From Eledone cirrhosa (taxonomy: Eukaryota), in NCBI GenBank assembly GCA_964016885.1, contig OZ024755.1, forward strand, positions 8,680,001-8,744,000: a stretch of 64,000 nt of DNA, in the 5' to 3' direction. The position numbers were made by a program, and so were the translations under genes. The notes under the pieces were generated by a model that made no database searches, was not told the DNA's origin, and saw only the letters and a list, made by a program, of their open reading frames with translations. Of the stretch, positions 55,751-56,230 are shown one piece after another. Positions within the stretch are counted from its first letter, which is position 1, and every line of letters begins with the position of its first letter.

Positions 55751-55912
55751 TGTTTATGTATATATATATATATATATATATATAATGTAGGAGGTGAGTT
55801 TTATTGTAGTACAATAAAGCAATGCAGATATCGGATAAGAAGCACTCTACAGTTTGTGGGACTGGAGTATGCATAATATAAGATCAAAAGATGGTTAAAG
55901 GAGTTCCATATA

Positions 55913-55979
55913 TTTTATTATGCGCATTTCAAAAACAAACATCATCAAGCAATAATATTTGTGTTTTCATCAGATAAAA
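55913..55979 (-). ncRNA. Type I hammerhead ribozyme motif, mirror copy on the minus strand
   Basis: Exact reverse complement of 56112-56178, in the left arm of the palindrome. Confidence 0.78.
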
Positions 55980-56111
55980 CAAGAGAACATGATATGAAGG
56001 CTAAAAAAACACTTGTTGAGAGTGCAGTTTTAAATCAACATATAAAGATATGTTGATTTAAAACTGCACTATCAACAAGTGTTTTTTTAGCCTTCATATC
56101 ATGTTCTCCTG

Positions 56112-56178
56112 TTTTATCTGATGAAAACACAAATATTATTGCTTGATGATGTTTGTTTTTGAAATGCGCATAATAAAA
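56112..56178 (+). ncRNA. Type I hammerhead ribozyme motif (minimal, Penelope/retrozyme-like)
   Basis: Stem I ttttat/ataaaa (6 bp). Core CTGATGA at 56118-56124. Stem II aaacacaaatattatt-gctt-gatgatgtttgttttt (15 of 16 pairs including G-U). GAAA at 56161-56164. Palindromic stem III ATGCGCAT. AUA triplet, predicted cleavage after 56172. Confidence 0.8.
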
Positions 56179-56230
56179 TATATGGAACTCCTTTAACCAT
56201 CTTTTGATCTTATATTATATATATATATAT

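Follow-up and report, generated by a model that had tools for sequence, protein, structure and literature searches.

Head-to-head pLTR copies of a Penelope-like element form a palindromic insertion, likely rebuilt each time, in a (TA)n microsatellite of Eledone cirrhosa

The 64-kb stretch of Eledone cirrhosa DNA analyzed here (hereafter the window) contains a short palindrome that carries a hammerhead ribozyme motif in each arm. We are fairly confident that this is a Penelope-like insertion of 436 bp (55783-56218) in a (TA)n microsatellite, consisting of two head-to-head copies of a terminal repeat (pLTR), and that its palindrome is likely rebuilt at each insertion by two-ended priming on one RNA. 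The locus itself is ordinary transposon debris and holds no designed RNA switch. Its layout has already been published; what is new is a young and very abundant family of a known retroelement class.

The two arms of the inverted repeat, 171 bp each, are separated by AAAG at the centre and differ at two positions (56020/56071 and 55982/56109), so that the arm length, 4-nt loop and 2 mismatches given in a first-pass annotation of this DNA are borne out by the window sequence. The bounds proposed there were too small, since the 90-bp tail and the (TA)n stretches at both ends had been overlooked. All features are listed in Table 1.

Table 1. Features of the palindromic insertion, in window coordinates.
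Feature	Position	Strand	Basis
(TA)n target microsatellite, left side	55759..55784	.	sequence
90-bp one-sided tail, pLTR continuation toward the parent ORF	55783..55872	-	15/17 best-matching loci
pLTR arm with tail, unit positions 1-171	55873..56043	-	sequence comparison
Type I hammerhead, predicted cut after 55919	55913..55979	-	
Junction AAAG, filler plus G replacing the parent's C (likely reverse-transcribed cap, right arm)	56044..56047	+	
pLTR arm without tail, unit positions 1-171, start = putative transcription start	56048..56218	+	
Type I hammerhead, core CUGAUGA 56118-56124 and GAAA 56161-56164, predicted cut after 56172	56112..56178	+	
(TA)n target microsatellite, right side	56219..56231	.	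sequence

The hammerhead on the plus strand has a stem I of 6 bp, all A-U, both core motifs, an AUA site, a stem II with 15/16 positions paired (one C-U mismatch, three G-U) and a self-complementary stem III, AUGCGCAU. The copy on the minus strand, read from 55979 to 55913, is identical. The 6-bp stem I and the self-complementary stem III support the earlier description as a minimal type I hammerhead with a dimer-type stem III. Of the claim that an intact hammerhead lies on both strands, the full core and the stem II pairing stood, but each strand has one sense ribozyme and not two. A purpose-built hammerhead descriptor gave two matches in the window, both in the palindrome arms; the same relaxed descriptor gave 2 matches in 200 random 64-kb sequences. 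With a stricter version (4/4 closing pairs in stem II), neither window ribozyme matched, owing to the C-U mismatch. The check that had been suggested with the Rfam hammerhead models failed, as no model scores the motif at gathering level: nothing reached the gathering threshold, none of the 45 matches at E ≤ 5 was a hammerhead, and the miRNA matches at that level merely reflect the hairpin. An intact core is found in 128 of 133 related arms, and stem II pairing is preserved by its common variants (A-U/G-U, U-G/U-A), all of them being one-sided.

A search of the 3.0-Gb genome returned 887 candidate palindrome matches, and the 40 that were scored all cover at least 340 of the 346 bases at 94-100%. 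Arms were counted as exact matches of the 22-base word at the arm start (11,147 genome-wide). The centre is common to at least 768 copies whose arms lie 0-12 bases apart, a count that leaves the shared-ATAT form uncounted. For closer study we used a sample of 66 loci, comprising all loci behind the first 100 listed of the 11,147 matches; these lie on one contig (C1), and one arm of each has to carry the exact 22-mer. Lone arms were taken with 3.5 kb of upstream sequence and 6 loci with 1.5 kb. The 66 loci form a continuum, which extends from perfect palindromes to arms that lie kilobases apart with an ORF. Perfect palindromes without an ORF number hundreds to low thousands in the genome.

Within this sample, 116/122 arm 3' ends enter (TA)4+, and for 120/122 arms the 3' end falls on either of two sites (unit positions ~171 and ~259). 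Head-to-head pairs amount to 52, of which 47 bear exactly one tail. The same asymmetry is seen in 15 of the 17 best-matching loci (one being the window's own), where the tail is present on one side and both ends enter (TA)n. In a parent copy of the element (L052), the tail sequence runs on into the element, and the tail end is likely a second start site of reverse transcription. No (TA)n target-site duplication was readable. At L006 and L085 the tail end meets (ATC)n, or (TA)n followed by (ATC)n, instead of pure (TA)n, and L012 and L003 carry no tail at either side. The flanks of L003, L055, L085 and L137 show families targeting (TA)n that are nested in one another's microsatellite ends. Another repeat end starts directly at (TA)n in the window (56232-56300, 56914-56983, ~19331-19437 and 39339-39426) and also beside L137; this end, present in at least four copies in the window, is possibly that of a third (TA)n-targeting element. 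A degenerate (TA)-rich microsatellite of ~1.6 kb occupies 51200-52830.

The unit in the window belongs to a Hydra-like Penelope-like element (PLE) with an ORF, of which it forms the terminal repeat. The Penelope pLTR origin, already suggested in the first-pass annotation, is supported by the parent copy L052, in which an ORF is flanked by pLTRs. L052 is a partial tandem in the order pLTR with tail, open frame of 775 codons, repeat-rich 3' UTR, pLTR without tail and (TA)n; the parent unit measures ~3.9 kb, and the ORF begins downstream of the tail. Its product combines a reverse transcriptase core (YRDDG) with a C-terminal endonuclease region of the GIY-YIG type (IYECK..YFG..R..NH), and this copy has a frame break near the N-terminus. 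A Pfam scan of the L052 protein itself returned 0 families, and 14 of its 19 homologues contain PF26215; alignment identity to 7 of the 19 is 37-40%. The features of PLEs are thus present: a single ORF for reverse transcriptase and endonuclease between pLTRs, a hammerhead in the pLTR, and a one-sided tail on tandem or inverted copies. Those of the Hydra clade comprise the DKT (SDKT), the CxCX5C linker (CNCRIKNKC), CxxC (CNLC) and CxH (CLH) motifs, the preference for (TA)n and a hammerhead, here judged by structure. In both copies that reach the motif (L052 and L065) RWI replaces RWK, which is found in 6/7 aligned homologues, and we therefore name the element Hydra-like and not Hydra.

An Asn-rich insert of ~70 residues lies between the reverse transcriptase and the endonuclease of the L052 ORF (which spans 1850-4177, minus strand) and is absent from the 7 aligned homologues; it recalls the N-rich inserts known in Adineta Penelopes (PMC3846280). 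The 3' UTR (L052:1020-1640, minus strand) contains a tandem repeat of ~115 bp whose copy number varies among copies, with 206 stop-free codons in the sense direction. At G000:C1:363086169-363093992, three pLTR starts on the same strand follow each other at ~3.9 kb, among the matches listed, and form a head-to-tail tandem of full-length units, which is a candidate source of read-through RNAs with a tail. By tblastn and blastn, neither a PLE ORF nor the parent body was found in the 64-kb window.

Is the palindrome made anew or does it move as a whole? Arms differ by a median of 0 positions within a locus and 5 between loci, although the identity within loci could also be explained by gene conversion. 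A tree of 101 arms, built with L002-L017 left out and with unsettled bootstrap support, intersperses short arms with ORF-linked ones; six sets of identical sequences include arms of both classes, and at least 12 changes of class are required by the starred branches. The palindrome is thus likely built anew at each insertion and not carried as a unit. The first-pass annotation had considered that the palindrome itself might be mobile as a non-autonomous element, or might serve as a self-silencing or conditional ribozyme switch. A foldback or MITE-like element of this kind, or a switch selected by the host, would agree with the at least 768 copies sharing a centre, with the near-complete coverage of the 40 scored matches and with the intact core in 128/133 arms. 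Yet symmetric termini and a fixed interior would be expected of such an element, whereas the tail stands on one side, the 18 palindromes sampled show 12 distinct junction forms and carry filler on one arm or the other, and the short copies are polyphyletic, their arms being interleaved with ORF-linked arms in every subfamily. In addition, private variants are present on both arms, the spectrum of loci continues up to ORF-containing arms at kilobase distance, and core integrity would be expected anyway in a family this young and in its parent. We regard this alternative as very improbable and see the ribozyme as the parent's passenger. The proposed check for recurrence with the same centre was answered positively by the copy number, but the centre proved to be a hot spot at which arms stop, with varying letters at the junction. 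Even less credible, to the point of being negligible, is a foldback artefact of the assembly, which the earlier annotation had also raised. Perfect inverted repeats are a known form of chimera; against this, the same biology recurs at hundreds of independent loci on many contigs, and the window copy has an asymmetric tail, unlike flanks on its two sides and two arm mismatches.

A further possibility is that short palindromic copies act as masters in a SINE-like manner: an internal promoter at the centre would drive the tail arm, yielding a 260-nt RNA with both start sites from which the parent's protein rebuilds the palindrome. Both 3' sites are indeed present in the tail arm, more than half of all arms start at position 1, and an internal promoter in the pLTR is described for Penelope (PMC8557442). 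Nevertheless, none of the haplotype sets common in the sample is limited to short copies, and parent upstream bases occur in 1,057/2,231 arms (47%) of the window's subfamily compared with 42% in the whole family. As the upstream pLTR of full-length RNAs already accounts for the short class, such masters are not needed, and we consider them improbable.

The centre of the palindrome deserves particular attention. Parent upstream bases are kept by 4,672/11,147 arms, and the remaining 58% lack them at this one point. Where the parent has C, these arms carry G in 2,111 cases, A or T in 2,151 and C in another context in 2,213, numbers that take in mutated arms of the parent type. Inside the unit, comparable four-base intervals contained 72 ends at the ribozyme cut compared with 358 at a control site, the two search patterns being inexactly matched to each other. 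The pile-up at the centre is thus sharp and lies away from the ribozyme cut, and the templates were therefore uncleaved. In the sample, the first foreign base is G in 16/30 arms that break exactly at the centre and in 0/16 at inner cut points (Fisher p = 0.0002; L094, which was misclassified, is left out of this comparison), and this G is seen in older and younger subfamilies alike. The right arm of the window copy carries it at 56047. Among the matches listed and scored by eye, 22/50 junctions consist of a single base, which can equally be read as the G of one arm or the parent's C of the other, and of 26 junctions with longer filler, 24 carry G on one or both arms; at some junctions the G also belongs to microhomology with the partner arm. 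In full-length L1 insertions, an extra G is a trace of the cap (PMC11702581). We infer from this pattern that capped element RNA starts at the centre, the extra G likely being a trace of its cap.

Two other readings of the centre were rejected. It is not the ribozyme cut, which is located 125 nt further downstream without a pile-up of ends, and it is not a splice acceptor or leader junction, since AG is absent from the parent at this place and the bases preceding the G vary. The parent's TCA/T context at the break presumably resembles the initiator consensus.

In the proposed mechanism, the parent's reverse transcriptase-endonuclease would cut both strands within (TA)n, and both DNA ends would serve as primers for cDNA synthesis on a single uncleaved RNA, starting at the pLTR end in one case and at the tail end in the other. 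With the protein on the pLTR nearest to the RNA 5' end, both cDNAs would run off at the capped start (G), and their ends would be united by end-joining, via the self-complementary ATAT or a few filler bases; with the protein on a downstream pLTR, the arms would enter the 3' UTR and ORF, where their stopping points would vary. The ribozyme would travel as a passenger. Several observations bear on this scheme. The start is reached by both arms in 35 pairs. Of these, 18 have two arms that end at it, 16 have two arms that continue and a single pair is mixed, against 17.4 mixed pairs expected under independence; both arms of a pair therefore derive from the same pLTR of the same template. The two 3' sites used by nearly all arms correspond to the pair of start sites flanking the tail in the Poseidon in vitro system.

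The main competitor is fold-back or self-priming, in which one cDNA or antisense RNA snaps back at CATATG/ATAT and copies itself into an inverted arm, as has been proposed for such junctions on an antisense template (PMC3846280). The centre does sit on a short palindrome in the parent, shared ATAT is the commonest single junction form (6/18), and arms within a locus are near-identical. However, when arm extents were compared in the 47 one-tail pairs (approximate values from BLAST coverage), the 5' limit was more distant on the tail-less arm in 24 pairs and on the tail arm in 5, with 18 pairs equal. Each side of those 24 pairs holds sequence private to its arm, the tail-less arm extending further 5' while its partner holds the tail, and therefore neither arm is a fold-back copy of the other. 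Extra bases and the G occur on either arm or both, and a G at the 5' end in sense orientation is consistent with a capped template of sense polarity. These data argue against antisense self-priming for at least half of the pairs; fold-back could still apply to the 18 equal pairs and the 5 with a longer tail arm, but as a general explanation we give it little credence. Two-ended priming is thus preferred, and on balance we favor the view that the junctions may be read as a genome-scale record of this process on one capped, sense, uncleaved RNA with head-to-head end-joining of the cDNAs. A literature search by title and abstract start, which covered few subscription papers, returned nothing on a cap-derived G in Penelope or on this insertion mechanism.

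Compared with known systems, the window family shows both agreement and differences. An inverted, 5'-truncated copy with a one-sided tail is the published layout of endonuclease-bearing PLEs (PMC8557442; PMC3846280), which share the head-to-head pLTRs, the tail at one end, the pLTR hammerhead and the microsatellite target. The tail described in these sources is 30-40 bp in length versus 90 bp here, and unlike the layout set out in their relevant sections, both arms are often complete pLTRs that halt at one base marked by an extra G. Elements of the Hydra clade, as outlined in PMC8557442, likewise have a C-terminal endonuclease, the DKT, CxCX5C, CxxC and CxH motifs, (TA)n targets and a hammerhead. 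Their units are <3 kb compared with ~3.9 kb here, where a repeat-rich 3' UTR and the Asn-rich linker insert are present and RWI is found; the label Hydra-like is based on motifs. The ribozyme motif was not found in one supplementary file of that paper.

For the Poseidon protein in vitro, it is described that both strands are cut and extended from two starts bracketing the tail, with use of uncleaved RNA (PMC11167929). The PAc element of Anolis in that study thus resembles the window family in the two reverse transcription start sites around the tail, the extension of both strands, the AT-rich target and the uncleaved RNA. There, in contrast, the ORF begins inside the ribozyme and the joining of the two products is not addressed in the main sections of the source, while in the window family the ORF start follows the tail and the joins are legible in the genome sequence. 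Pairs of hammerheads on opposite strands 100-700 bp apart were already described in 2014 (PMC4209133), and the minimal hammerheads of metazoan PLEs share the type I fold, the 6-bp stem I, the short palindromic stem III and the predicted dimer; the window hammerhead differs in its stem II of 16 bp and in that no Rfam model scores it. Non-LTR retrozymes are also short, non-coding, hammerhead-bearing and PLE-derived (PMC7229834; bioRxiv 10.64898/2026.07.22.740005). They are head-to-tail tandems processed at the ribozyme, whereas the window unit is head-to-head and has no pile-up of ends at the cut site. L1 twin priming, finally, also end-joins two primed cDNAs and leaves an extra G at full-length 5' ends (PMC11702581), but its cDNAs span different parts of the RNA, while here the same part is copied and a palindrome results.

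Folding predictions suggest that the ribozyme is weak alone, capable of dimerization and off in read-through hairpin RNA. In a read-through transcript of either strand, the predicted probability of stems I and II is 0.0, in agreement with the earlier suggestion that the ribozyme is sequestered by its own antisense. For an RNA starting at the centre, stem II is predicted at 0.97 and stem I at 0.84 without the tail and 0.02 with it, and for the ribozyme monomer alone stem I is predicted at 0.09. Two copies are predicted to form a stem III duplex of -12.5 kcal/mol. By analogy with other metazoan PLE hammerheads, the ribozyme probably needs a dimer or a protein; dimer cleavage was reportedly observed by Lunse et al. 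2017. It is best seen as the 5'-UTR ribozyme of the parent that has been carried along.

The window contains a second palindromic insertion at 38130-38600 (415 bp, 99%) from a different hammerhead-bearing family. Its layout is the same, with (TA)n ends and a ~57-bp tail at the right-hand side, and its arms meet at stem I of the ribozyme. Genome-wide, the core of this family has 9,013 exact matches; most copies continue upstream, and among 30 of these matches no strong pile-up at the centre was seen; its centre looks like a chance cut point. The hot spot is accordingly specific to the first family. Further inverted repeats lie at 30455-30896, 37560-37995, 40517-40855, 42152-42770 and 23442-23838, several of which belong to one dispersed repeat family with ~10 copies in the window.

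The origin of the tandem and inverted repeats of PLEs has been called unresolved (PMC8557442), with self-priming on antisense RNA as an earlier proposal (PMC3846280). The family described here offers thousands of natural products and a sharp prediction, namely a capped start at one base and two cDNAs from one RNA region. If true, two-ended priming would settle the origin of the inverted repeat and tail of PLEs against the antisense self-priming model, and the transcription start would be mappable from DNA alone. It would also mean that ~1,000 or more ready-made, perfect hairpins of 170 bp have been seeded into the (TA)n repeats of this genome, and collectively these palindromes could be a source of dsRNA or a cause of DNA instability.
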